A stretch of 64,000 nt of DNA from assembly GCF_024502345.1 (NCBI RefSeq), contig NZ_JALDNN010000001.1; one strand, 5' to 3'. The notes below the pieces were generated by a model. That model saw only the letters and a list, made by a program, of their open reading frames with translations, had not been told where the DNA came from and searched no databases. The stretch is from Escherichia coli (lineage in GTDB: Bacteria; Pseudomonadota; Gammaproteobacteria; Enterobacterales; Enterobacteriaceae). Positions 27,316 through 51,053 of this stretch are shown in pieces (within the stretch, counting starts at the first letter, position 1; each line of letters opens with the position of its first letter). A program made the translations under genes and the position numbers.

Positions 27316-29877
27316 TTACACCAGGCTCTTCAAGCGATAAATCCATTCCAGCGCCTGACGCGGAGTCAGTGAATCCGGGTCCAGGTTTTCCAGAGCTTCG
27401 ACCGCTGGCGAGGTTTCTTCCGGTACTGACAGCAAAGACATTTGCGTACCATCCACTTGCGTAGCGGCGGCGTTCGGCGAAATGCTTTCCAGCTCACGCA
27501 GTTTTTGCCGTGCGCGCTTAATCACCTCTTTTGGCACGCCTGCCAGAGCTGCAACCGCCAGGCCGTAGCTTTTGCTCGCCGCGCCATCCTGCACGCTATG
27601 CATAAAGGCAATGGTGTCTCCGTGCTCCAGCGCATCGAGATGCACGTTGGCGACGCCTTCCATTTTTTCCGGTAACTGGGTCAGCTCGAAATAGTGGGTA
27701 GCAAACAGCGTCAATGCCTTAATCTTATTCGCCAGATTTTCTGCGCACGCCCACGCCAGCGACAGACCATCGTAAGTGGACGTTCCACGCCCGATCTCAT
27801 CCATCAATACCAGACTGTACTCGGTGGCGTTATGTAAAATATTGGCGGTTTCGGTCATCTCCACCATAAAGGTTGAGCGCCCGGACGCCAGGTCATCTGC
27901 CGCGCCTACGCGGGTAAAGATGCGATCGATAGGTCCAATCTCGACTTTTTGTGCCGGTACATAGCTGCCGATGTAGGCCATCAGCGCAATCAGTGCGGTC
28001 TGGCGCATATAGGTACTTTTACCGCCCATGTTCGGACCGGTGATGATCAACATGCGGCGCTGCGGCGACAGATTCAGCGGGTTGGCGATAAATGGCTCAT
28101 TCAGTACTTGTTCAACTACCGGATGGCGACCTTCGGTAATGCGAATGCCCGGTTTATCAATGAAGGTCGGGCAGGTGTAGTTCAGGGTATAGGCCCGTTC
28201 CGCCAGGTTCACCAGCACGTCGAGTTCCGCCAGCGCGCTCGCGCTCTGTTGCAACGCTTCCAGATGCGGCAACAGCAGGTCGAACAACTCTTCATAAAGC
28301 TGTTTTTCCAGTGCCAGTGCTTTGCCTTTTGAGGTGAGAACTTTATCTTCGTACTCTTTTAGCTCTGGAATGATGTAGCGCTCGGCGTTTTTCAGCGTCT
28401 GGCGACGCATGTAGTTGATGGGTGCCAGATGGCTTTGCCCACGGCTGATTTGAATGTAGTAGCCGTGCACCGCATTAAAGCCAACTTTCAGCGTGTCCAG
28501 GCCGGTACGTTCACGCTCGCGGACTTCCAGACGCTCCAGATAATCGGTCGCGCCGTCAGCCAGCGCGCGCCACTCATCCAGCTCTTCGTTATAGCCCGAT
28601 GCGATAACACCACCGTCGCGTACCAGCACCGGCGGTGTGTCGATGATTGCTCGCTCCAGCAGATCGCGCAGCTCGGCAAACTCGCCCATCTTCTCACGTA
28701 GCGCCTGTACCGGTGCACTATCGACAGTTTCTAACTGCGCACGCAGCTCCGGCAGTTGCTGGAAAGCGTGGCTCATACGGGCCAGATCGCGTGGGCGAGC
28801 AGTTCGTAAAGCCAGACGTGCCAGAATACGTTCCAGGTCGCCGACCTGACGCAGTACCGGCTGTAGCCCGGCGGTGAAATCCTGCAATGCGCCAATAGTT
28901 TGCTGGCGCTCAAGCAACACGCGGGTATCGCGCACTGGCATATGCAGCCAGCGTTTCAGCATACGGCTGCCCATCGGCGTGACGGTGCAGTCGAGCACAG
29001 AAGCCAGCGTATTTTCCGCACCACTCGCCAGGTTCTGGGTGATTTCCAGATTACGACGCGTCGCGGCATCCATAATGATGCTGTCCTGCTCACGTTCCAT
29101 GGTGATGGAACGAATATGCGGCAGAGTCGTACGTTGGGTATCTTTCGCATACTGCAACAGACAACCGGCAGCACAAAGTCCGCGCGGCGCGTTCTCGACG
29201 CCAAAACCGACCAGATCGCGAGTGCCAAATTGTAGATTCAACTGCTGGCGCGCGGTGTCGATTTCAAACTCCCACAGCGGGCGACGGCGCAGGCCGCGAC
29301 GGCCTTCAATTAACGACATTTCAGCAAAATCTTCTGCATACAGCAGTTCCGCAGGATTAGTGCGTTGCAGTTCTGCCGCCATCGTTTCCCGGTCAGCCGG
29401 TTCGCTCAGGCGAAAACGACCGGAACTGATATCCAGCGTCGCGTAGCCGAAACCTTTGCTGTCCTGCCAGATAGCCGCCAGCAGGTTGTCCTGACGCTCC
29501 TGCAACAGGGCTTCATCGCTGATGGTGCCTGGCGTAACGATACGCACAACTTTGCGCTCAACCGGACCTTTGCTGGTCGCCGGATCGCCAATTTGTTCGC
29601 AGATGGCAACGGACTCGCCCTGATTCACCAGTTTGGCGAGGTAGTTTTCCACCGCATGGTAGGGAATCCCCGCCATCGGGATCGGCTCTCCCGCCGAAGC
29701 ACCGCGTTTGGTCAGTGAAATATCCAGCAGTTGCGACGCGCGTTTTGCGTCGTCATAAAACAGTTCATAAAAATCACCCATCCGGTAAAACAGCAGGATC
29801 TCGGGATGCTGGGCTTTCAGCTTGAGATACTGCTGCATCATGGGGGTGTGCGAGTCTAAATTTTCTATTATACTCAT
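27316..29877 (-). CDS. mutS: DNA mismatch repair protein MutS
   Basis: 853-aa ORF; Walker [10 protein letters not shown], conserved N-terminal mismatch-binding region. Confidence 0.97.
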
Positions 29878-29971
29878 CGGCTTGTGATGTCCATTCTCTT
29901 AATTTTTAATGAGTTAGTGGTTTTTATGGTTATCATTATGTTTCACGTTGTCTCATCGAATATCATGAAAT

Positions 29972-30073: not shown

Positions 30074-31375
30074 GTGCATGATAACGGAGTCTTTATGGCA
30101 GGAAAACAAGAGGGAAAGCCACTTTCGTTTAAAGGGGTAGAAATGATGAAGCCAGGCGATAAAGATAAGGCTGATGTAGGCGAAAATCGTGGCTTACGTG
30201 TCTCCTGTGGTGCAACTGGTGTTAAGTCTTTTTTCTACCGTTACACAAGTCCTCTGACTGGCAAACTTGCTCAGGTTAAAATTGGTAACTTCCCGCAGAC
30301 TTCTCTCGCCGCTGCACGTCTTAAACTTCATGAATTAAAGCTCCTCCGGCAGGAAGGTCGGTGCCCTGCGTCAGAGCTTAAGCAAGATAAGCTCCAGCGT
30401 GCGATTGAAGCTGAACAGGCTAAGATCCCTGAATTGACCGTACAGGGATTAGTTGAACTGTATCTTACTGAACGTATTGAGGATCGTAAAACGAAGGACG
30501 GGAAGGTCATTCCCGGTGCCAGAAAACCGAAAGGACAGGCTGAGGTTCGTCGTACTCTCTATGGTGACGCTGTTAAAAGTTTAGGAACCCGGAATGCTGC
30601 TGAGATAACGCGCCAGGATGTTATTAATTTAATCAATGGCATTGTAGCTCGGGGCGCAACCGTACAGGCAGGGAATGTACTGAGAGAACTTTCACTCGCA
30701 TATGAATTTGCAATTGGACTTGGGCGCTTTGATGACAGTTTTGCGAATCCAGCGCTGTTAGCAAAATCTAGCTTACGACAGACCAGAATCAAGCTCACAA
30801 ATGGACGTGGAACACGAGTACTGAGTGAGGACGAGCTTGCAAAATTCCTTAAATGGCTACCGGGTTCGGCTTACACGCCAACGATCAAAAACGTGTTACG
30901 TCTGACTCTCTGGACCGGGTGTCGTACCGGTGAAGTCTGCAATATGGCATGGAAGGATGTTGATCTTGAAAAAGGCACCATTCATCTTAGAGAAACCAAG
31001 ACTGGAGTAGAGCGTTACGTTCAGTTATCGGATCAAGCGATCGACTTTCTCAAGGTTCTACGCCTTACCTCTGACAAATATCTATTCCCTTCACAAGCCA
31101 CTAAAAAGCCAATCCAGCAGAAGTATCTAACTGAAAACTCATGGCGTTTACGTGAAAGCGGTCAAATGCTTGATATACCTCATTGGACGCCGCATGATCT
31201 GCGTCGTACAGTACGAACGGGCTTATCTCGTTTGCAGTGTCCAAATGAGGTGGCTGAGGCCGTATTGGGGCATACACGAGGCGGTGTTGAAGGGATTTAT
31301 AATCTGTATAAGTATGATGCTGAGTGTAGGAAGTGGTTGCAGGTGTGGGCGGATTATTTAGATACTTTAACGTAA
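30074..31375 (+). CDS. Tyrosine-type integrase, P4-like family
   Basis: 433-aa ORF; C-terminal catalytic region with R...HDLRRT...LGH...Y pattern (TPHDLRRTVRTGLSRL, LGHTRGGVEGIYNLY). Confidence 0.85.
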   Translation: MHDNGVFMAGKQEGKPLSFKGVEMMKPGDKDKADVGENRGLRVSCGATGVKSFFYRYTSPLTGKLAQVKIGNFPQTSLAAARLKLHELKLLRQEGRCPASELKQDKLQRAIEAEQAKIPELTVQGLVELYLTERIEDRKTKDGKVIPGARKPKGQAEVRRTLYGDAVKSLGTRNAAEITRQDVINLINGIVARGATVQAGNVLRELSLAYEFAIGLGRFDDSFANPALLAKSSLRQTRIKLTNGRGTRVLSEDELAKFLKWLPGSAYTPTIKNVLRLTLWTGCRTGEVCNMAWKDVDLEKGTIHLRETKTGVERYVQLSDQAIDFLKVLRLTSDKYLFPSQATKKPIQQKYLTENSWRLRESGQMLDIPHWTPHDLRRTVRTGLSRLQCPNEVAEAVLGHTRGGVEGIYNLYKYDAECRKWLQVWADYLDTLT

Positions 31376-32161
31376 TTTGCCAATTAGATGTCCAATCATT
31401 TCGTTACATCAAAGTTGTGCTTAATTTTTATTTTATAAGGATAATATGGATATTTTTTCTGGAGAATCAATTCTTTCCCAAGTCCCTGATGTCAATCATT
31501 GGTTAGCTTCTTACGGCTTGAATTCAACTACATCAAGATATAGCAGATATATCTCTTATATTGATGCTTTTTTTGAGTCGAAAGATCCCACCTCATCTGA
31601 TGGAAGAGACAAATTTGATTTATTAACCAAGTCGTATGCAGAAATTATAGAAATAGTCAGCGTTAAAAAAGCGTTTGAACATGAAAGAAGCCCCGGATTT
31701 ATTGAGCGTTTAAGTAAGGTTGTTTCTGGAGTTGATCATGTTGGTATTAAAGAACCCAGTGAGCCAAGGAATTTTCTCTACGAATTACTTATGGCTGCCC
31801 GGCTAAAAAATGCTGGCTTTATTATTGATTTTGACCAAGGAACTGATGTTGTCGCATATGGATTTGGTCGTGCTATTTTCGTTGAATGTAAACGCACAAC
31901 ATCAATAAGAGGGTTCGAATCTAATTTCATTAAAGGTGGAAAGCAATTAGAGAGAAAGTTTAAGAGTACGAAACTTCCCCATTTTATGATTCGGGGATTT
32001 ATTGCTATCGATGTTTTACCATATGTATTGAACGATATTCCTAAATTTGAAATAGATAATGAAATGGAAGCTCGCATTTGTGCCAGGATAGTGATGGAAC
32101 GTTTTAAGCAAGATGCAAGTAGGCATATTAATAAGTATATATCACGTTATGAAAATGTTAG

Positions 32162-33356
<1,195 letters not shown>

Positions 33357-33775: not shown

Positions 33776-34105
33776 TCAGTTCTTTTTCCCGGCCAGCATA
33801 TCAATCATCATGGGATAAATCTTTTCGCACTTCATGCCCGGATTCTGTACTGCGAAACTCCACCCCTCGTCCATCGCCGCAGCAACCTCTGTTGTTGAGG
33901 CTATGGGCCAATCGCTCACGGTGTCGTAGACTTTACTGATAGCCTTGTTCTTATCCATGCCGGTGTGTTGCTGCTGGCACATTCTGACCATTACTTCTGC
34001 GGCCTGAGCAGGCTGGCTTGCCGGGTAAGCAGCCAGCGCCGGGGCGGATGTCGTTGTGATGAGCAGTGCGGTAATAATATGCTTCTTTATTGTGTTACCC
34101 TTCAT
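33776..34105 (-). CDS. Small exported protein (signal peptide), function unknown
   Basis: 109-aa ORF with N-terminal hydrophobic signal (HIITALLITTTSAPALAAYPA); last gene of leftward operon. Confidence 0.5.
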   Translation of the reverse strand: MKGNTIKKHIITALLITTTSAPALAAYPASQPAQAAEVMVRMCQQQHTGMDKNKAISKVYDTVSDWPIASTTEVAAAMDEGWSFAVQNPGMKCEKIYPMMIDMLAGKKN

Positions 34106-34620
34106 TGAACCTGAATGCCCTGAACCGGGCTATTGTCCCATGTCATCGGTCGGTCTTCCGGAATTGCCGGGGCACTGTTAGTGGCCGGTTTATCAACAAC
34201 AGGTTTCGCGCTGGCGGGAAGGTCATCTGGTGAAATAACTCGGGTTATCACACCCATCTTCTCACCAACAGCGGAGTTCATCTGATCGCAGAGGGTTTTT
34301 ATCTGGAGCCGGATACCGCTCTGGTTTATTCCTTCGCTTTTGAATTGCTGCTCAAGAATAAAGCGGTCCTGAAGGGAATGGTAATAGTTAATATTGTCCT
34401 TCGTTAATATCATGATGTTGCCGGTATTATCCTGATAGCGATTGCTGCGGATAAGTTTATCCAGTGCGGTTAAAGCCTCATCGCCAGTGTAACCATACTG
34501 GTGGCAGGTATTCAGGGTGGCATAAGCCTCATACAGCCCCTGCAAATTTTCTGCGGGGAGTGTTTTTGCCCCGGCACAACCTGAAAATGCCAGAAGCAAC
34601 ATAGCAGCGGTTTTCCTCAT
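34102..34620 (-). CDS. Putative lipoprotein, function unknown
   Basis: 172-aa ORF, signal peptide with lipobox-like LAFSGC; overlaps downstream gene by 4 bp. Confidence 0.55.
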   Translation of the reverse strand: MRKTAAMLLLAFSGCAGAKTLPAENLQGLYEAYATLNTCHQYGYTGDEALTALDKLIRSNRYQDNTGNIMILTKDNINYYHSLQDRFILEQQFKSEGINQSGIRLQIKTLCDQMNSAVGEKMGVITRVISPDDLPASAKPVVDKPATNSAPAIPEDRPMTWDNSPVQGIQVQ

Positions 34621-34672
34621 TTTAGGTAGTCTCCTTTCATTGACGTTTCATCATCCGTCATGCGCGTTACAG

Positions 34673-35200
34673 TTAACGGATGCGGATATTTCTGGTGATT
34701 TTTCCATGTGTCAACGGGCTGCGTTTTTCCACAAAGAAATACGCGACATTGAACGCGGATTTGCGATGGTTGCCCCGGCCCAGAGAAGGCCAGCTCCTGA
34801 AGGACTCAATTTGTTCTTCGGTATAGGGTGTGTCAGAAAAATCGAACAGTACAAGCAGGGCTTTGCCGTCATACTTCATCAGTTTCTTCACCTCCGTGCT
34901 GTTGACGGAGGCTGACAGCGCAGAACGGGCAGCTCCCGGCTTACGGACGGCGAACTCTACAGCCACATCGTCAATGACGAAATCAATGTAGCCATGTCCG
35001 GACAAACTGCCCGGTAGTTTTCCCCTAACCTCAGGTGAGAGGCTGTCAGCAAACCAGCCCAGTAGGTAGCAACGCACCAGCGGTAATAGCTCCCGCTCAT
35101 TGCATTCGTTAAGGCGCAGGGTTTTGACAAATGCTTTCCGGTAAAGGGAACTAAAAAGGTACTCAAAGCATTCCGTTACTTCAGTAATAGTGGTCGCCAC
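34673..35200 (-). CDS. Hypothetical protein (175 aa)
   Basis: ORF directly downstream of Ner-like gene on the same strand; no family recognised. Confidence 0.5.
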   Translation of the reverse strand: MATTITEVTECFEYLFSSLYRKAFVKTLRLNECNERELLPLVRCYLLGWFADSLSPEVRGKLPGSLSGHGYIDFVIDDVAVEFAVRKPGAARSALSASVNSTEVKKLMKYDGKALLVLFDFSDTPYTEEQIESFRSWPSLGRGNHRKSAFNVAYFFVEKRSPLTHGKITRNIRIR

Positions 35201-35212
35201 TCTATGCTCCCT

Positions 35213-35491
35213 TCAGCTTTCCTTTTTGACAGACCTGCCTGCGTAGCGCTCAGGCCAGATAGTTTCGGGCGTGGTATCCAGTGCCTCAGCAATAATCTTT
35301 TCTGCCCGTGGATAGTGGCGCTCAAAAGCGTTACTCAGTGTCCTTGAGGCCAGCCCGTGATGCCGGGAGAGAGCAGACAGGGAAAGTCCCCGCTTGTGCA
35401 GGGCGGCGACAATATCAGCCCGGTGCCAGTTAACAGCACTTCCCTTACTTCGCTTTTTTTGCGAATCTGTTGAGTTACTCAATGTATTCAC
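35213..35491 (-). CDS. Ner/Nlp-family HTH DNA-binding regulator
   Basis: 92-aa ORF; WHRADIVAALHKRGLSLSALSR...IWPERY matches the Mu Ner / Sfs7 family pattern. Confidence 0.75.
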   Translation of the reverse strand: MNTLSNSTDSQKKRSKGSAVNWHRADIVAALHKRGLSLSALSRHHGLASRTLSNAFERHYPRAEKIIAEALDTTPETIWPERYAGRSVKKES

Positions 35492-35603
35492 TCCGGGTTG
35501 TTAGTACTGGAGATATTAAAAGCGAACAAAGGGAAGTTATCAAGTTCCTTTTGTGGTTATTTGCGCTCATTTAACTAACGCTTTGATAAGAGGTGAAATT
35601 TTT

Positions 35604-35984
35604 ATGGGCAGTGAACAGATGACTGACCCCTGCGTTACCGGAATGACGGAGAGTGGGGGGTGGCTTACAGCAGAGCAGTTTGCCGGAATGGAAGGGATGC
35701 CGGGCACAGCGAAAGGGGCGCGACTACGTCTGGAAAAGCTCACTGCTCTGCACCCGGAAATCCGCCGCAAACGCACCAGTGGGAAGGGGTTTCTGTACCA
35801 TATCAGCGCGGCAGGGATGGCACTGAAAAGTGAGCGGGATGCGACAGATACCTCAGCAGACGAGCAGCTCAACCTCTGGATACAGCTGTTTCGCACAATG
35901 AAACCGGCCTCCAGGGATAAACTTTTGCAGCAGGCTCTGGCTCAGGTTGCGAGGGACCTGACTAAAGGAGACGTTAACCAGTAA
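35604..35984 (+). CDS. Putative DNA-binding protein, Mu repressor-like N-terminal domain (divergent from ner-like gene)
   Basis: ATG 35604 with RBS gaggtgaaa; motif WLTAEQFAGMEGMPGTAKGARLRLEKL resembles the Mu-type winged-helix DNA-binding domain; weak. Confidence 0.4.
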   Translation: MGSEQMTDPCVTGMTESGGWLTAEQFAGMEGMPGTAKGARLRLEKLTALHPEIRRKRTSGKGFLYHISAAGMALKSERDATDTSADEQLNLWIQLFRTMKPASRDKLLQQALAQVARDLTKGDVNQ

Positions 35985-36067: not shown

Positions 36068-36691
36068 GTGGCAGTCATTGCGTACTCAGCCACTGTATTA
36101 ACCCATCCTGGCTTGTTCACAGCCATCACTTTTCCTGGAATAGCAACAATGACACTTCCCCGAGACGTTCATGCGTCCCGTCAGGGCCAGCATGACTACT
36201 TATGTGGCATCTACAGCTTGATTAACACCCTCAGTTACCTTTATGACGGCAGAGTACGGCGAGAAAAATTAATGTACCGCCTGCTTAGCAGCTATAAGCG
36301 ACGATGGGATTTATTTGATCTCCTGACGCTCGGTCTGGACGAGGAACAAATGGACCACCTGATTGGTGATGTTCTCCTGAAAGGGCATTACGCCCGGCAT
36401 TATCCCCTGAATTTTCATACCCCCTTCCGTTACCGCTCCCTGCGCAGCCGACAGATACTCAGCGACATCAGCGACTGGCTGGCGTTGCCGGAGAACCAGG
36501 CGCAGCGCGTGGTGATTCTGGGCACATCCTGGCACTGGTCTGTGGTAGTCCGTACCGATGCTACCCGGCTGTTCCTGTTTGACAGCTTGGGAATACGCAG
36601 CCAGCGCAGGGATACGTTCTCCGTACAGCCGGAGCTGAAGCGCCACACGCTGCTGCCGGACGCCATCTATTTCGTCGAACGTGAGTTCTGA
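36068..36691 (+). CDS. Hypothetical protein (207 aa; start uncertain, alternative ATG at 36149)
   Basis: ORF upstream of radC-like gene; no family recognised. Confidence 0.45.
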   Translation: MAVIAYSATVLTHPGLFTAITFPGIATMTLPRDVHASRQGQHDYLCGIYSLINTLSYLYDGRVRREKLMYRLLSSYKRRWDLFDLLTLGLDEEQMDHLIGDVLLKGHYARHYPLNFHTPFRYRSLRSRQILSDISDWLALPENQAQRVVILGTSWHWSVVVRTDATRLFLFDSLGIRSQRRDTFSVQPELKRHTLLPDAIYFVEREF

Positions 36692-36713
36692 CCCCTGCAG
36701 AAGGAGACTGACC

Positions 36714-37202
36714 ATGACTTTTACCGCCTGCGACCAGAGCGGTTTTTACCGGACCACCGGGCCGGTGTCCCGCGAGGATATTATCCGCTTTGCCCATACG
36801 CTGCTCTCCCGCCGGTTTCGCAATCGCCGAAAAATTACGTCCTCTAATGATGTTCACCAGTGGCTGGTGCTGAAGCTGGCAGAGGACACCCGGGAGAGCT
36901 TCGGAATGATACTGCTCTCGCAGCAGCACCATCTTCTGGGCTACCACATCCTGTTCACCGGGACGCTGAACCAGACCATGGTTTACCCCCGCGAAATTGT
37001 CGCTCTGGCGCTGACGCATCATGCAGCCGCAGTGATACTGGTCCATAACCACCCAAGCGGTGAGCCTGAGCCGAGCCAGGCCGATAAACTCATTACCCAA
37101 AAAATTACCGATGCGCTTTCACTCCTTGATATCCGCGTCGTGGACCACCTTATTGTGGGTGGTGACGATGCTTACTCCTTTGCAGAACACGGCCTGCTCT
37201 GA
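36714..37202 (+). CDS. RadC-like JAB-domain protein (YeeS/YfjY/YkfG family)
   Basis: start at ATG 36714 after aaggag RBS; JAMM motif region ...AAAVILVHNHPSGEPEPSQADKLIT... and C-terminal DHLIVGGDDAYSFAEHGLL closely resemble E. coli YeeS. Confidence 0.85.
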   Translation: MTFTACDQSGFYRTTGPVSREDIIRFAHTLLSRRFRNRRKITSSNDVHQWLVLKLAEDTRESFGMILLSQQHHLLGYHILFTGTLNQTMVYPREIVALALTHHAAAVILVHNHPSGEPEPSQADKLITQKITDALSLLDIRVVDHLIVGGDDAYSFAEHGLL

Positions 37203-37289
37203 GTGACCTGGTTTAATACACATTAACCACGGTAATCCACGTTCGCCTTATCCCTTCATTTTTAAACTGTAAATACTGAGGTTTTAACC

Positions 37290-37721
37290 ATGAACATCAA
37301 TGCCGTTATTCAGCCGGCAGGCTTTGTGCTGCCTGTCAGTCTGCAGCTGTTCGACATGCTGATGGTAGAAGCAGGCGAAAAAACCGCTAGTAAACATCGC
37401 ATTACCGCCGTTACGCTCAATTTCCGGGACCCGAACTACAGCGCGGAGCGGGGCGGCTATCACCCGGTGGAAATTCGGCTGGTTCACCAGGGGGATGAAT
37501 GGTGCCTGGACTACGCCACCGATTTTGGCTATGTCGGCAACGCTTACCCCGAGCTTGAGAAAATCATCGATATCAGTTGGTCGCAGGGCTACGTCTGGCA
37601 CTGCCGTACAGGGGATTTGTCCCCGTCTGAGGCGCGGGCGCTCTACACCCTGTGGGAGCGCAACTTCCTGAGCTATCACGCCAGTGGGGTCTACATCACC
37701 CGAGTGCTGTGGGAAAGCTGA
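37290..37721 (+). CDS. Hypothetical protein in the position normally held by the CbeA-type antitoxin (143 aa)
   Basis: ORF between radC-like and cbtA-like genes; no similarity to YeeU/YfjZ antitoxins as I recall them. Confidence 0.5.
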   Translation: MNINAVIQPAGFVLPVSLQLFDMLMVEAGEKTASKHRITAVTLNFRDPNYSAERGGYHPVEIRLVHQGDEWCLDYATDFGYVGNAYPELEKIIDISWSQGYVWHCRTGDLSPSEARALYTLWERNFLSYHASGVYITRVLWES

Positions 37722-37864: not shown

Positions 37865-38482
37865 ATGAAAAAACAACCTGTCTCACTGGCTCGGGAGACA
37901 TCGTGCTGCCTGTCGCCTGCTGATGTCTGGCGTACCCTGCTGACTCACCTGCTGGCACAGCACTATGGGCTTGCCCTCAACGATACGCCGTTTGGTGAGG
38001 AAGGCACCATTCAGGCGCATATTGACGCTGGTGTTACCATGATGGAAGCCCTGAATACCGTCGTTGAGAAGTATGATCTGGTACGTACAGATCGGGACAG
38101 TGTGGGCCTTCACCCTGGCTCCTCATTGATTACTGCTATTGATGTTCTCCGGGCGCGAAAAGCCACCGGGCTCCTGAAGCGGGGAGCATATCAGTTCGTG
38201 AGCCACATCACGCAGGGGCGCAGGCCCGCCCCGGACAGTGCAGTAACCGCCGGGCCCTCCGCGCCGTTACCATTGCTACCATCGGACACATTCACCCGAC
38301 AGGACGCGGTGTCCATTATGGCGGTGTATGACTGTGTGGCTATTGAGGATGACCAGCATACCCATTTCCGTCTGGCAATACGCGATGCTGAAGGTCAGCT
38401 TATCTGGCGGGCCTGGAACTTTGAGTCCGGAGCCGGGCAGGGGCTTAACCACTATCTGCAACGTTATGGTGTGAAAAAATGA
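37865..38482 (+). CDS. CbtA/YeeV-family type IV toxin homolog with about 75-aa C-terminal extension
   Basis: N-terminal 125 aa (…DVWRTLLTHLLAQHYGLALNDTPFGEEGTIQAHIDAGVTMMEALNTVVEKYDLVRTD…IDVLRARKATGL) align with CbtA (…[37 protein letters not shown]…VEKYALVRTD…IDILRARRATGL); ORF continues to 205 aa. Confidence 0.72.
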   Translation: MKKQPVSLARETSCCLSPADVWRTLLTHLLAQHYGLALNDTPFGEEGTIQAHIDAGVTMMEALNTVVEKYDLVRTDRDSVGLHPGSSLITAIDVLRARKATGLLKRGAYQFVSHITQGRRPAPDSAVTAGPSAPLPLLPSDTFTRQDAVSIMAVYDCVAIEDDQHTHFRLAIRDAEGQLIWRAWNFESGAGQGLNHYLQRYGVKK

Positions 38483-38576: not shown

Positions 38577-39524
38577 ATGACCTCGAACCGCAAGGGCAGG
38601 CGTGCGGAAACTGTGCGCCAACAAAACGTCCCCACCATCAACCCGGCACAGCTTTGGCTGGCAGGTCTGACGCGCGCCGGGCGCAAGGGGATGCAAAGCC
38701 AGCTTCGGCGCTGTGCCGGTATCCTGCTTCCGGGCTCGGATACCGACAGCTACCCCTGGCAGATGCTGAACTACACGGGGATGATGCAGATCCGTGCGCA
38801 CATGCTGGATGCTGGCTATGCTGTCGCGACTGTCAACATGGCACTGTCGGCGCTGAAATCGGTTGCCTTTAGCGCGTTCAGTATGGGTCTGATGGATGCT
38901 GACACGCTTGCGCGCATACGCAACGTCAGGCGGGTCAGTGGTGACGGTTGTAGGCTGGGGCGTGCGCTGGCCCGCCATGAAATCCGGTCAATGCTGGCGG
39001 CGGCAGCGACGTTCTCCACTGTGCGCTGTCAGCGCGAACGGGCCATTTTGTTGCTTCTGTGTGGTGCCGGGCTGCGAGCGGGTGAGCTGGTTGCCCTGAA
39101 TGCGGAGGATATTGACGTTGCCGCAGGGATTGTCTGGGTCAGGGAGGGAAAAGGGCGCAAAAGTCGTGAAATTCACCTTGCCGCGAAGGTATGCACGCAG
39201 CTGCGCCGTTGGCTGAAGTGCCGTGGAGACCATGAAGGGCCGTTGTTCAGTCGTATCAGCCGGGCAGACCGGCCAGGGCCACACAGGCTTACCACGACTG
39301 GATTGACGGGGCTGTTGGCACAGCTACGCGAAGCCGCTGGCGTGGACTATTTCACCCCGCACGACCTCAGACGAACGTTCATCACACAGTTGCTGGAGCA
39401 GGGAACCGACCTCAACGTGGTACGCCAGCTTGCGGGGCATGCCGATATCGCCACAACCACCCGATATGACTACAGGGGCCGGGGTACGCAGGACAGAGCC
39501 TCCAGGGCTTTCTGTTGCTGGTAA
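38577..39524 (+). CDS. Tyrosine recombinase / phage-integrase-family protein (XerC/D-like)
   Basis: 315-aa ORF; catalytic-domain motifs LLLCGAGLRAGELVAL, TPHDLRRTFIT, AGHADIATTTRYDY. Confidence 0.8.
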   Translation: MTSNRKGRRAETVRQQNVPTINPAQLWLAGLTRAGRKGMQSQLRRCAGILLPGSDTDSYPWQMLNYTGMMQIRAHMLDAGYAVATVNMALSALKSVAFSAFSMGLMDADTLARIRNVRRVSGDGCRLGRALARHEIRSMLAAAATFSTVRCQRERAILLLLCGAGLRAGELVALNAEDIDVAAGIVWVREGKGRKSREIHLAAKVCTQLRRWLKCRGDHEGPLFSRISRADRPGPHRLTTTGLTGLLAQLREAAGVDYFTPHDLRRTFITQLLEQGTDLNVVRQLAGHADIATTTRYDYRGRGTQDRASRAFCCW

Positions 39525-42301: not shown

Positions 42302-43786
42302 ATGAAAGCCTACTGCACACAAAACAATATTCTCGTCACGGAAAGCACGATGAATGCTTTCAGGGAGGCCATTTTTAGCGTTCCATTCGACGACACATGT
42401 GACGGACGATGCAAGCCAACGTGGTATATGTCCATTGCTATTTTTTTGCAGCATCTTATTTGCAGCGCCACTGCGAGCCGTAACACGCGTAAGCGGTCGC
42501 AATTTAAGGGGAACCGACTATGGACCTGTTCAGTTCCGTTTCCTTATGCACTGGGAGAAAAAGTGGCTCCGGCAGTATTCAGACGCTCAAGAGAGCTACC
42601 GTTTGAAAGAGCGCTGGAAAAGCTGGAGGAAGTAGGGTTTATCAGAATCATTACACACGATGTTATACGTCACAAATGCCGGGAATTTGCGCTTTCTCGG
42701 CGGTTTCTCGACGTGCTGTTTCCCGGGGACAGAACTGCTTATCTCAACCTGGAAGATCGGTATGGCTATCTGACCGATGTTTACCGCAGACGTATGGGAC
42801 CGATGACGCTGGAAGAACGGCTTGCTCAGGCCATGTTACGAAAGTGCAAAGTCAGGCATTTAACGTCAACCCGGAATATACCTGATAAGGCCTTTCGTGA
42901 GCGGGTTGCAGCGGTGTATGACCGGCTTGAAGCGTTGCCGGTTAACATCGATGCGCTGAGGATGTACTGTAACGAGCAACCATCCACTGTGAACAGGGTT
43001 TATTATCACAATTTTATCAGCCATCTTTGTGAAGCCGGTGTTGAGGCTATCAGCCTGAGTCCGTTAATCGTCTCATATCGGCAGGTATATCGTACGGCTA
43101 GGCTGGGCGGGCGTTCGTTTGAGGTGGGGAAGGGGTTTCAGTATCTGCCAAAAGGCATGAAATGGGCATGTCTGGGGCAGGGCTATAACTACGATATAAA
43201 AAGCAGCCAGCTTGAGATACTGCGTCATGAGCTGCAGCGTATCGGATTATCCGATAAAAACCTGAAGCGGCTGGAAACGGATTACATTACAAAGAAACTG
43301 GGCGTCACCACGGATGAGGTAAAACAATTTAGGTTTGCTGCTGTCTTTAGCGCTGGTTCGGTCAGCCTTTCAGTGAAAAGTGGAGTAAGGAAGAGGCTGA
43401 ATAAAGTTCTCGGCGATAAGAGGGCAGAAAACGTGCTCAAACGCTGGAAAAAATTGATGCAACCGCTACGGGAAGATCTGAAGAGGCTGATCGAGGATTA
43501 TCTGGCGACGGGAACCACAAATCGATACGGGCTTTGCGTGAAAAATGCTGTGGGACAAAATTTTAACTGTAGCTGGAAGAATTTCAGCGCCAGACAGGCA
43601 TGGCAGCCAGCGCAGATGCACCGAAAGCTGCTTGCGCACATGTTACAGGGGCTGGAAAGTCAGGCTGTGTACGATTATGTTGCCAGCAATAAAGGCGTTT
43701 GTGCGCTAGAGCATGATGGGTTTGTTACATATGAAGAGATAACTGACTGGTCCCATCCATATCTTTTGATAGAGAAAAAGCATTGA
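42302..43786 (+). CDS. Hypothetical protein (494 aa)
   Basis: long ORF after a 350-bp intergenic gap; no family recognised. Confidence 0.5.
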   Translation: MKAYCTQNNILVTESTMNAFREAIFSVPFDDTCDGRCKPTWYMSIAIFLQHLICSATASRNTRKRSQFKGNRLWTCSVPFPYALGEKVAPAVFRRSRELPFERALEKLEEVGFIRIITHDVIRHKCREFALSRRFLDVLFPGDRTAYLNLEDRYGYLTDVYRRRMGPMTLEERLAQAMLRKCKVRHLTSTRNIPDKAFRERVAAVYDRLEALPVNIDALRMYCNEQPSTVNRVYYHNFISHLCEAGVEAISLSPLIVSYRQVYRTARLGGRSFEVGKGFQYLPKGMKWACLGQGYNYDIKSSQLEILRHELQRIGLSDKNLKRLETDYITKKLGVTTDEVKQFRFAAVFSAGSVSLSVKSGVRKRLNKVLGDKRAENVLKRWKKLMQPLREDLKRLIEDYLATGTTNRYGLCVKNAVGQNFNCSWKNFSARQAWQPAQMHRKLLAHMLQGLESQAVYDYVASNKGVCALEHDGFVTYEEITDWSHPYLLIEKKH

Positions 43787-50555: not shown

Positions 50556-51053
50556 GGAGATGCCCTGTGTTATTAGAAGGAGGGGAAAACAGAGAGAGTA
50601 TAACGCTGGATGAGTACAGCAAACAATATTCTTAAAATCAGATAGTTACAAAAGTGTAGGTTAAAATGTATTTTTTATTCTCTGGTGGAAAATAATCTTT
50701 AATAATCAGCATTAACACACCAATGCATCATGGGCGTATGGGCGTCGAAATTTTCTATTGCACTCATGGGGTTATGTCCGGTTCCCTGATATTAAATGGG
50801 GTGTGATGGTTTTTATTTTCGTTGTAATCACATAAGGCGCACATGATACCGGAGTTAATCATTTCAGGGGAAGAAGCGAACGGCGAGTTCTTGATGTTGG
50901 TTCCGGGAAAGATGCTGTTTTGCAGCTTTTGCGTGATGCTTATGAAGCAAGTACGCAAAATTGCGTCGGTTGAATAAACCTCCTCCTTCAGAGCCATAGT
51001 CCCCTTTCAAATTAAGTTGTAGTATAAATACACCTTAAGAGTATGGAGGCAGT

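Follow-up and report, generated by a model that had tools for sequence, protein, structure and literature searches.

Genes and features of the locus

A block of five open reading frames (ORFs) was analysed in a 64,000-nucleotide stretch of an Escherichia coli chromosome (contig NZ_JALDNN010000001.1 of assembly GCF_024502345.1), referred to below as the window. The block belongs to an island of about 20.9 kb flanked by mutS and ygbA. On the minus strand, a gene for a homologue of the regulator EnrR is followed by genes for a protein with a predicted nuclease fold (g2) and for two exported proteins (g3 and g4); a divergent gene on the plus strand encodes a protein likely to resemble the c repressor of phage Mu (Table 1). 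An initial annotation of this sequence had placed four leftward ORFs and one divergent ORF here, and its coordinates agree with the ORF listing and with the RefSeq annotation of the same five genes in E. coli chromosomes 99.9% identical to the window.

The enrR-like gene and g2 are separated by 12 nt with the ribosome-binding site (RBS) AGGGAG, g2 and g3 by 52 nt with the RBS AAAGGAG, and g3 and g4 overlap in the sequence ATGA. When the blocks of the window, of E. coli KL53 and of an Enterobacter hormaechei island were compared in pairs, the ratio of nonsynonymous to synonymous substitution rates (dN/dS) lay between 0.05 and 0.21 for all eight block genes compared, so that these genes are constrained and coding and are not chance ORFs. 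The four leftward genes and the divergent gene are thus genuine, lie close together and evolve under purifying selection.

Table 1. Positions of the features of the locus and of its island in the window; arrows mark predicted cleavage sites.
Feature	Position	Strand	Remarks
Left att-like direct repeat	29834..29886	.	overlaps the mutS start codon at 29877
P4/IntSXT-type tyrosine integrase gene	30074..31375	+	NCBIfam integrase matches; the corresponding gene of related loci has Arm-DNA-bind_3 and Phage_integrase
g4, 109 aa, exported	33776..34105	-	signal peptide MKGNTIKKHIITALLITTTSAPALA↓AYP; conserved Cys C43, C93
g3, 172 aa, exported	34102..34620	-	lipobox AFSG↓C15, AGA↓KTLP site, Pro-rich linker; conserved Cys C39, C110
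g2, 175 aa	34673..35200	-	predicted stand-alone PD-(D/E)xK (BamHI-like) fold
enrR-like gene, 89 aa	35213..35482	-	Ner family, HTH_35; alternative GTG start 35491
18-nt inverted repeat	35440-35457 / 35518-35535	.	89% complementary
Divergent control region, 121 bp	35483..35603	.	conserved in the alignment of 27 loci
Putative P_enrR	-35, 35543-35538; -10, 35520-35515	-	sigma-70-like, read from the alignment; -35 TTGATA, 17-nt spacer, -10 TTTAAT
Palindrome GGAACTTGATAACTTCC	35548-35532		overlaps the -35; consensus over loci GAACTTgatAAGTTC
c-like gene, 126 aa	35604..35984	+	Mu-type winged-helix-like N-terminal region (about residues 19-75), helical C-terminal half
Backbone genes downstream of the c-like gene	36149..37721	+	180-aa protein; RadC/JAB 36714-37202; DUF2787 37290-37721
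Second integrase gene	38577-39524		preceded by a DUF905 gene
Right att-like direct repeat	50724..50776	.	53 nt, 81% identical to the left copy

The leftward genes are headed by a close homologue of EnrR

The product of the head gene matched EnrR (PDB 7f9h) over residues 5-88 with an E value of 2.8e-38, phrog_769 with 1.5e-31 and Mu Ner (1neq) with 2.3e-24, and HTH_35 (PF13693) was detected on the orthologous genes of related loci. The Ner-family call of the initial annotation was thus borne out. By eye, the protein is about 80% identical to E. piscicida EnrR (7f9h/7f9i) over 84 aligned residues, including a basic N-terminal extension, SQKKRSKGS, that aligns to EnrR residues 2-16 and is invariant in the protein alignment. 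About ten extra N-terminal residues, which form alpha-0, set EnrR apart from Mu Ner (PMC9023278). The regulator is closely homologous to EnrR and is probably its orthologue. Its start has to be moved from GTG 35491, where it had been read initially: in the upstream alignment of 27 loci, the conserved start is TTG 35482, 8 nt past GGAG (35494-35491), and the GTG, which lies inside the RBS, is missing from the other 26 loci of that alignment.

In Edwardsiella piscicida, EnrR (ETAE_0051) is a nucleoid-associated protein of the Ner family that is encoded on an island and reaches about 29,000 copies per cell. It binds AT-rich DNA, the top peak in chromatin immunoprecipitation being its own promoter, and it competes with or counteracts H-NS (PMC9023278). 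Its gene lies on the island GI2, with integrase, transposase and DNA-repair genes on the flanks, and the same study noted homologues in E. coli, Salmonella and Yersinia. EnrR regulates virulence in Edwardsiella and raises the expression of Salmonella pathogenicity island 2 (SPI-2) in Salmonella; deletion of enrR in E. piscicida caused no growth defect, and overexpression of EnrR in E. coli induced a Mu/D108-like prophage. The genes downstream of enrR were outside the analysis of that study (PMC9023278).

The divergent control region and the c-like gene

The enrR-like and c-like genes face away from each other across a conserved control region, from which a putative enrR promoter could be read; a consensus promoter scanner missed it, as it accepts only A as the second base of the -10 element. 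The region also contains a palindrome over the -35 and a ATATCAAWGCGTTA box adjoining the c-like start. One arm of an 18-nt inverted repeat falls in the promoter spacer and -10 region and the other in the enrR codons for the SQKKRSKGS extension. This repeat is recognisable in the 27-locus consensus and may serve as a looping or operator element.

The c-like protein matched phrog_310 (Mu-like transposase N-terminus) with an E value of 6.3e-8 and phrog_7148 (repressor) with 1.2e-5. When a profile of its family was used, the top PDB match was the DNA-binding domain of the Mu c repressor (1g4d), with a weak E value of 1.4, over the family motif W..ae.f....GMPGt.kG.R. The Pfam domain HTH_Tnp_Mu_1 (PF02316) was found in two of 12 family members at E <=0.1 (best 1.8e-3), the window protein itself giving no match in Pfam and nothing significant in NCBIfam. 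The Mu-repressor-like motif proposed in the initial annotation therefore has weak but concordant matches, and the protein is likely to be Mu-repressor-like.

One genome from each of 100,044 species was scanned with a Ner alignment as query, yielding 80 loci. An EnrR-type gene (60-88% identity) stands divergent from a c-like gene in 27 of them, all from Enterobacterales or Aeromonas, and genes for the 180-aa protein, RadC and DUF2787 follow the c-like gene in nearly all 27. The remaining loci (46-67% identity) have no c-like partner. The divergent pair described initially, with its 121-bp spacer, is thus an arrangement kept in 27 species-level genomes.

g2 is predicted to have a restriction-endonuclease fold

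An AlphaFold2 model of g2 was built on diverse homologues collected by a profile search; a shallow alignment had given a predicted local distance difference test (pLDDT) value of 50.6. The model confidently predicts a restriction-endonuclease-like alpha-beta-beta-beta-alpha-beta core. Seven residues are near-invariant (E35, E57, D73, E82, E103, K106 and D120), and D73 and E82 lie on adjacent strands of the model, as in a D...ExK site, with Ala84, invariant among close homologues, in the third position. We read BamHI and BglII as likewise lacking the lysine of the motif. We infer that g2 would be a metal-dependent nuclease with a BamHI/BglII-like, lysine-less site.

The 282 close homologues of g2 are 64-95% identical and come from Salmonella, Serratia, Aeromonas, Pseudomonas, Geobacter, Nitrosomonas, Salinisphaera and a metagenome-assembled genome of Syntrophobacteraceae. 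The family has 121 members among 1.84 billion representative proteins, nearly all of which are fragments or have a single domain and about 170 aa. The Geobacter and Nitrosomonas homologues share 64-70% identity with the E. coli protein and occur alone, with no Ner gene nearby, on contigs where their neighbours are HicAB, HigBA, MazE and TumE-type toxin-antitoxin modules. Such identity across bacteria so distant is unusually high for a small accessory protein.

By tblastn, g2 stands directly behind enrR in 16 of the 27 loci, and in six of these the genes overlap by 4 nt, an overlap typical of translational coupling. Neither a single alignment nor a deep profile matched g2 to any PDB sequence, and no methyltransferase gene adjoins it in the E. 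coli, Aeromonas, Pseudomonas, Geobacter or Nitrosomonas contexts. Where the tblastn searches with g2 and g4 matched "plasmid" records, these were very large and carried the island backbone again. g2 is therefore assigned to the PD-(D/E)xK fold class, outside the described families, and for want of a methylase it is not a member of a restriction-modification (R-M) system.

g3 and g4 form a rare exported pair

The signal-peptide claim of the initial annotation for the 109-aa protein agrees with what was found: g4 has a signal peptide ending in TSAPALA↓AYP that is conserved in its homologues. For the 172-aa protein, called a lipoprotein initially, the secretion signal stands, whereas the lipobox, MRKTAAMLLLAFSG↓C15, is present in the window allele and its cysteine is not conserved across homologues. 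Checked by hand, this lipobox fits the PROSITE PS51257-type pattern, and our heuristic also scores it as a lipoprotein signal. The cysteine is replaced by tyrosine in one homologue (P0122), absent in that of Enterobacter (P0128) and displaced in Aeromonas. A signal-peptidase-I site, AxA↓(K/N)-x-LP, is invariant across homologues, including CAGA↓KTLP in the window allele. The n, h and c regions of the signal peptides and the cysteine pairs of the mature parts are conserved across g3 and g4 alleles, the two cysteines of each protein being consistent with one periplasmic disulfide. Secretion of g3 and g4 is thus solidly predicted and the lipoprotein status of g3 is uncertain. No relative of g3 or g4 carries an annotation, and neither of the observations that would have spoken against the initial reading, a lack of signal peptides or a consistent housekeeping annotation of homologues outside mobile elements, was made.

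Alleles of g3 with only 36% identity overall share an unchanged C-terminal tail, PEDRPMTWDNSPVQG (34102-34160), and a similar tail, PEESPIEWESSPVEG, occurs in Aeromonas. The g3 tail could serve for docking or mark a boundary of recombination with g4. The idea that its PMTWDNSP stretch mimics a colicin TolB box was dropped, as the spacing does not fit.

Homologues of g3 form only eight clusters, the named ones from E. coli and Enterobacter, with further homologues in Aeromonas and Buttiauxella loci. Those of g4 form 31 clusters, all at least 66% identical, with E. coli, Salmonella and Enterobacter among the named hosts. Behind enrR, Enterobacter hormaechei and Buttiauxella brennerae have a g3 homologue followed by a g4 homologue, and g2 is missing; the Enterobacter g4 homologue, which adjoins the g3 homologue, is 76% identical. 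In Aeromonas, a 320-aa g3 homologue fused to an extra C-terminal domain, for which no annotation was found, lies behind g2. The dN/dS is 0.12-0.16 for g4 and spans 0.12-0.18 over the two genes g3 and g4. In its sequence distribution, the g3-g4 pair is a rare exported cassette restricted to Enterobacteriaceae and Aeromonas.

A variable slot for exported cargo behind enrR

The ORFs downstream of enrR in the related loci were called and clustered, the counts including a few duplicate entries for loci added by hand. The usual operon consists of enrR, often g2, and then families of four kinds: Cys-rich signal-peptide proteins of about 120 aa (17 clustered sequences), lipoproteins of about 110-130 aa with canonical L(A/S)GC lipoboxes (20 sequences), proteins of about 110 aa with two or three transmembrane segments (12 sequences) and an FtsK-gamma-like protein of 65-77 aa (eight sequences). 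The possibility that g3 and g4 are divergent copies of the usual signal-peptide, lipoprotein or transmembrane families was rejected, as hhalign similarity was confined to the signal peptides. Being unrelated to the usual families, g3 and g4 represent a rarer alternative occupant of the same slot.

ORFs with a signal peptide or lipobox made up 40 of 105 within 2.3 kb downstream of enrR and 19 of 348 elsewhere in the same loci, an odds ratio of 10.7 when both sets were scored with one heuristic; lipoboxes numbered 19 versus 0. The P value of this test is inflated by the phylogenetic relatedness of the loci. Even with this caveat, the impression of the initial annotation, a Ner-type regulator heading envelope-targeted products, generalises to the whole island family.

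As g3-g4 occurs without g2 in Enterobacter and Buttiauxella and a g3 homologue lies behind g2 in Aeromonas, g2 and g3-g4 are separable cassettes. The four-gene operon of the initial annotation therefore holds for its short or overlapping junctions, but not as a fixed unit. No integron-like boundary repeats were seen between the operon genes.

The block lies in an integrated island

Imperfect direct repeats of 53 nt, 20,890 nt apart, bracket the island. The left copy and the mutS start codon overlap, and the 5' end of mutS was apparently rebuilt by the integration. Besides the integrase next to the left repeat, the island carries a second, XerC-like integrase, an AlpA-like helix-turn-helix (HTH) gene, RadC/JAB and DUF2787 genes and CbtA/YeeU remnants, and its defence cargo comprises a type I R-M system with an AAA ATPase and Fic/DOC. 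No phage structural, transposition or lysis genes are present in the island gene list, and an Rfam scan of the island gave no match. Given the absence of phage genes, the two tyrosine integrases, the att-like repeats and the defence cargo, the element is a site-specifically integrated island and not the prophage assumed in the initial annotation.

The interval between fhlA/ygbA and mutS is a documented hotspot and the SPI-1 site in Salmonella (PMC7232297). The island backbone was found in about 40 of 5,426 complete E. coli genomes, from carriers that include environmental, frog and river isolates and do not form one pathotype.

Relation to known systems

The locus resembles that of E. piscicida enrR in its Ner/HTH_35 regulator and in its setting on an island, with integrase genes and a RadC-type "DNA repair" gene as neighbours. 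Unlike the EnrR study, which dealt with the regulator only, the present analysis adds the operon content g2-g3-g4 and the divergent c-like partner, both as known from sequence.

The Mu/D108 early region (Repc/Ner, Pc/Pe) likewise has a repressor gene and a ner gene divergent from a short shared region. Unlike Mu/D108, the island has no transposase A/B and no phage genes, it would move by tyrosine recombinases, and the operon on its Ner side encodes nuclease-fold and exported proteins. Mu Repc has 196 aa, in contrast to the 126 aa of the c-like protein, which matches it only weakly.

The pipolins of gammaproteobacteria have a core of IntSXT, DUF2787 and a second integrase with an excisionase, and piPolB as their hallmark; pipolin-like islands without piPolB have been mentioned in passing, and the Ner/c pair was not mentioned in that study (PMC11551731). 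The present island fits this piPolB-less kind. It shares with the pipolins an IntSXT/P4-type integrase where the element has integrated, DUF2787, a second integrase with an AlpA-like gene behind it, and a bimodular layout of conserved core and defence-rich variable arm, here with the type I R-M system (PMC11551731). It differs in that neither piPolB nor a WYL gene was seen and in its integration at mutS or yicC instead of a tRNA gene. Between 29.9 and 50.8 kb there is no ORF above 561 aa, the 99.9%-identical island has no RefSeq polymerase, and the two largest unannotated island proteins had no polymerase match, no piPolB-specific profile having been run.

By analogy, g2 may be compared with the endonuclease genes of BamHI, BglII, BstYI and OkrAI operons: it is of comparable size and lies directly behind a small, putatively autoregulating HTH gene, as R lies behind C. 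Unlike these systems, g2 has no adjacent methyltransferase, is unusually conserved, has Ala at the third catalytic position and is only 10-16% identical to these enzymes, and its regulator is Ner-type and not an Xre-type C protein. Cor, Llp, TraT, SieA and Imm/Sp are prophage or plasmid envelope exclusion proteins, small and exported or lipid-anchored, made by a resident mobile element. As small, predicted exported proteins encoded on an island, g3 and g4 resemble them; no match of g3 or g4 to an exclusion family was obtained in PHROGs, PADLOC, Pfam or NCBIfam.

Proposed working of the locus and alternatives

On balance, our favoured reading makes the locus a regulatory hub with a leftward operon in a pipolin-like island of about 20.9 kb without piPolB, whose exported cargo is probably protective. 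The anatomy in this reading is solid and the protective step is a guess. The enrR gene would be transcribed from a strong conserved promoter under autoregulation by EnrR, which would keep the AT-poorly-adapted operon transcribed in the integrated island by relieving silencing by H-NS, and g2, g3 and g4 would hence be made constitutively. The divergent promoters would both be cross-regulated by the c-like protein and EnrR, in the manner of c and Ner of phage Mu. Once exported by Sec, g3 and g4 would each be stabilised by one disulfide, g3 possibly being lipid-anchored in the window allele, and would act in the periplasm or at the membrane or envelope. Their role would most probably be protective, either by exclusion of phage or DNA entry or as immunity to a periplasm-acting toxin. 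For the cargo as a whole, a protective role, with nuclease restriction as a third form beside these two, is the most economical guess because the island is laden with defence genes and its envelope cassettes are interchangeable.

Several points weigh against this reading. In Pfam, NCBIfam, PHROGs and PADLOC, g2 had no match and g3 no significant one; g4 had none in Pfam, NCBIfam and PADLOC and only a weak match to a family of unknown function in PHROGs (E 0.0037). No phage-borne homologue of g2 or g4 was found by tblastn in 50,697 phage genomes. The purifying selection on g3 and g4 contrasts with the diversification that receptor-masking proteins often show. The AT-rich palindrome AATAAATNATTTATT, published as the binding consensus of EnrR, does not occur in the control region at up to three mismatches, so that autoregulation at this locus is extrapolated. 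Both the operon structure of g2-g3-g4 behind the enrR-like gene and the putative P_enrR are predictions read from the sequence, the signal-peptide and lipobox calls were made by hand and with a heuristic only, and the relatedness of the loci bears on the enrichment of exported ORFs. That E. piscicida GI2 shares this backbone is suggested by its published description (PMC9023278) and by a 47%-identical g2 fragment in the AlphaFold Database.

The initial annotation had seen in this locus the Mu-type c/Ner lysis-lysogeny switch of a prophage, driving superinfection exclusion or receptor masking by a lipoprotein. Divergent Ner-family and Mu-c-like genes, two exported products, defence genes on the element and the induction of a Mu/D108-like prophage by EnrR overexpression in E. 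coli (PMC9023278) are in its favour, and the Ner-family part of the idea stands. This family, however, is already known for a xenogeneic nucleoid-associated protein and not merely for lytic-switch proteins, and EnrR is reported to be constitutively abundant and not a product of the lytic phase (PMC9023278). Moreover, the element has two tyrosine integrases and att repeats in place of structural, transposase and lysis genes, the 175-aa and 109-aa proteins were unmatched in the phage genomes and the lipobox cysteine of g3 is not conserved. None of the five block proteins had a match in PADLOC, and no homology to an exclusion, receptor-masking or defence family emerged from Pfam, NCBIfam, PHROGs or PADLOC; we consider this explanation unlikely. 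Very unlikely, in our judgement, is that g3, g4 and the usual lipoprotein, periplasmic and transmembrane set are orphan immunity proteins (against type VI secretion, colicins or contact-dependent inhibition) or host-interaction morons under EnrR. They are small, predicted to be exported and disulfide-bearing, like typical periplasmic immunity proteins, one slot is filled alternately by cassettes without homology to each other, the island occupies the SPI-1 locus of Salmonella, and EnrR has its virulence role in Edwardsiella and its SPI-2 effect in Salmonella (PMC9023278), yet no locus examined has an adjacent cognate toxin gene, no homology to known immunity families was found and the carriers, from the environment, frogs and rivers, show no pathotype.

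A third explanation takes EnrR and g2 as the unit, a controller/endonuclease-like or antitoxin-toxin pair serving methylase-less defence or island maintenance, with g3-g4 as passengers. It would account for the BamHI/BglII-like fold and near-invariant acidic residues of g2, its frequent place directly behind enrR with the 4-nt overlaps, the binding of EnrR to its own promoter (PMC9023278), the solo g2 genes among toxin-antitoxin modules and the occurrence of g3-g4 without g2. Against it, g2 is found in distant phyla with no adjacent HTH or methylase gene, which argues that it is not intrinsically lethal, and 11 of the 27 loci have enrR without g2. Its 64-95% identity across phyla is unlike that of fast-evolving restriction enzymes, the canonical (D/E)xK lysine is replaced by Ala84 and PADLOC gave no match; deletion of enrR was also harmless to growth of E. 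piscicida (PMC9023278), although g2 may be decayed there. This pairing seems rather unlikely to us. A fourth view would join the two cargoes in one conserved envelope-plus-nuclease protection module of a widespread island family, in which EnrR would drive both the methylase-less, exceptionally conserved BamHI-fold nuclease and swappable sets of small exported, lipoprotein or membrane proteins that block phage, foreign DNA or periplasmic toxins. It is likewise rather unlikely; if true, it would amount to defence or exclusion in two layers by a system so far unrecognised, whose envelope cassettes can be exchanged.

Returning to the island hub favoured above, EnrR, earlier described as a lone xenogeneic regulator, would be the head of a conserved operon and one half of a Mu-like divergent module common to defence-carrying integrative islands of Enterobacterales and Aeromonas. 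That operon nearly always appears with exported proteins and usually with an unusually conserved restriction-fold protein. If the cargo adds to EnrR-linked phenotypes or to an envelope/nuclease barrier, this would explain the persistence of these islands and give three protein families roles; otherwise, the locus would be an ordinary island operon of hypothetical proteins.

Further observations on the island

In the stretch 31446-33210, an IS5-family element (transposase 32194-33210) lies inside a hypothetical gene adjoining the integrase; E. coli KMi029, 99.9% identical apart from this, has the uninterrupted gene (294 aa). The 180-aa backbone protein (36149-36691) is 100% identical to its Enterobacter copy and is kept in 23 of the 27 islands. 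No family match was found for it, and its pattern ...LCGIYS... / ...WHWSVV... / ...FDS... resembles a papain/C39-type Cys-His-Asp triad.

At 37865-38482 the window has a 205-aa ORF; in the 99.9%-identical island, RefSeq annotates this place as a truncated pseudogene for a CbtA-family toxin, and E. coli KL53 has a separate YeeU-family antitoxin gene and a CbtA pseudogene at this position. The sole match of a 494-aa island protein (42302-43786) was phrog_30690, of unknown function, with an E value of 2.4e-29. Its gene lies just upstream of the type I R-M/AAA ATPase cluster, and the protein could belong to a defence system.

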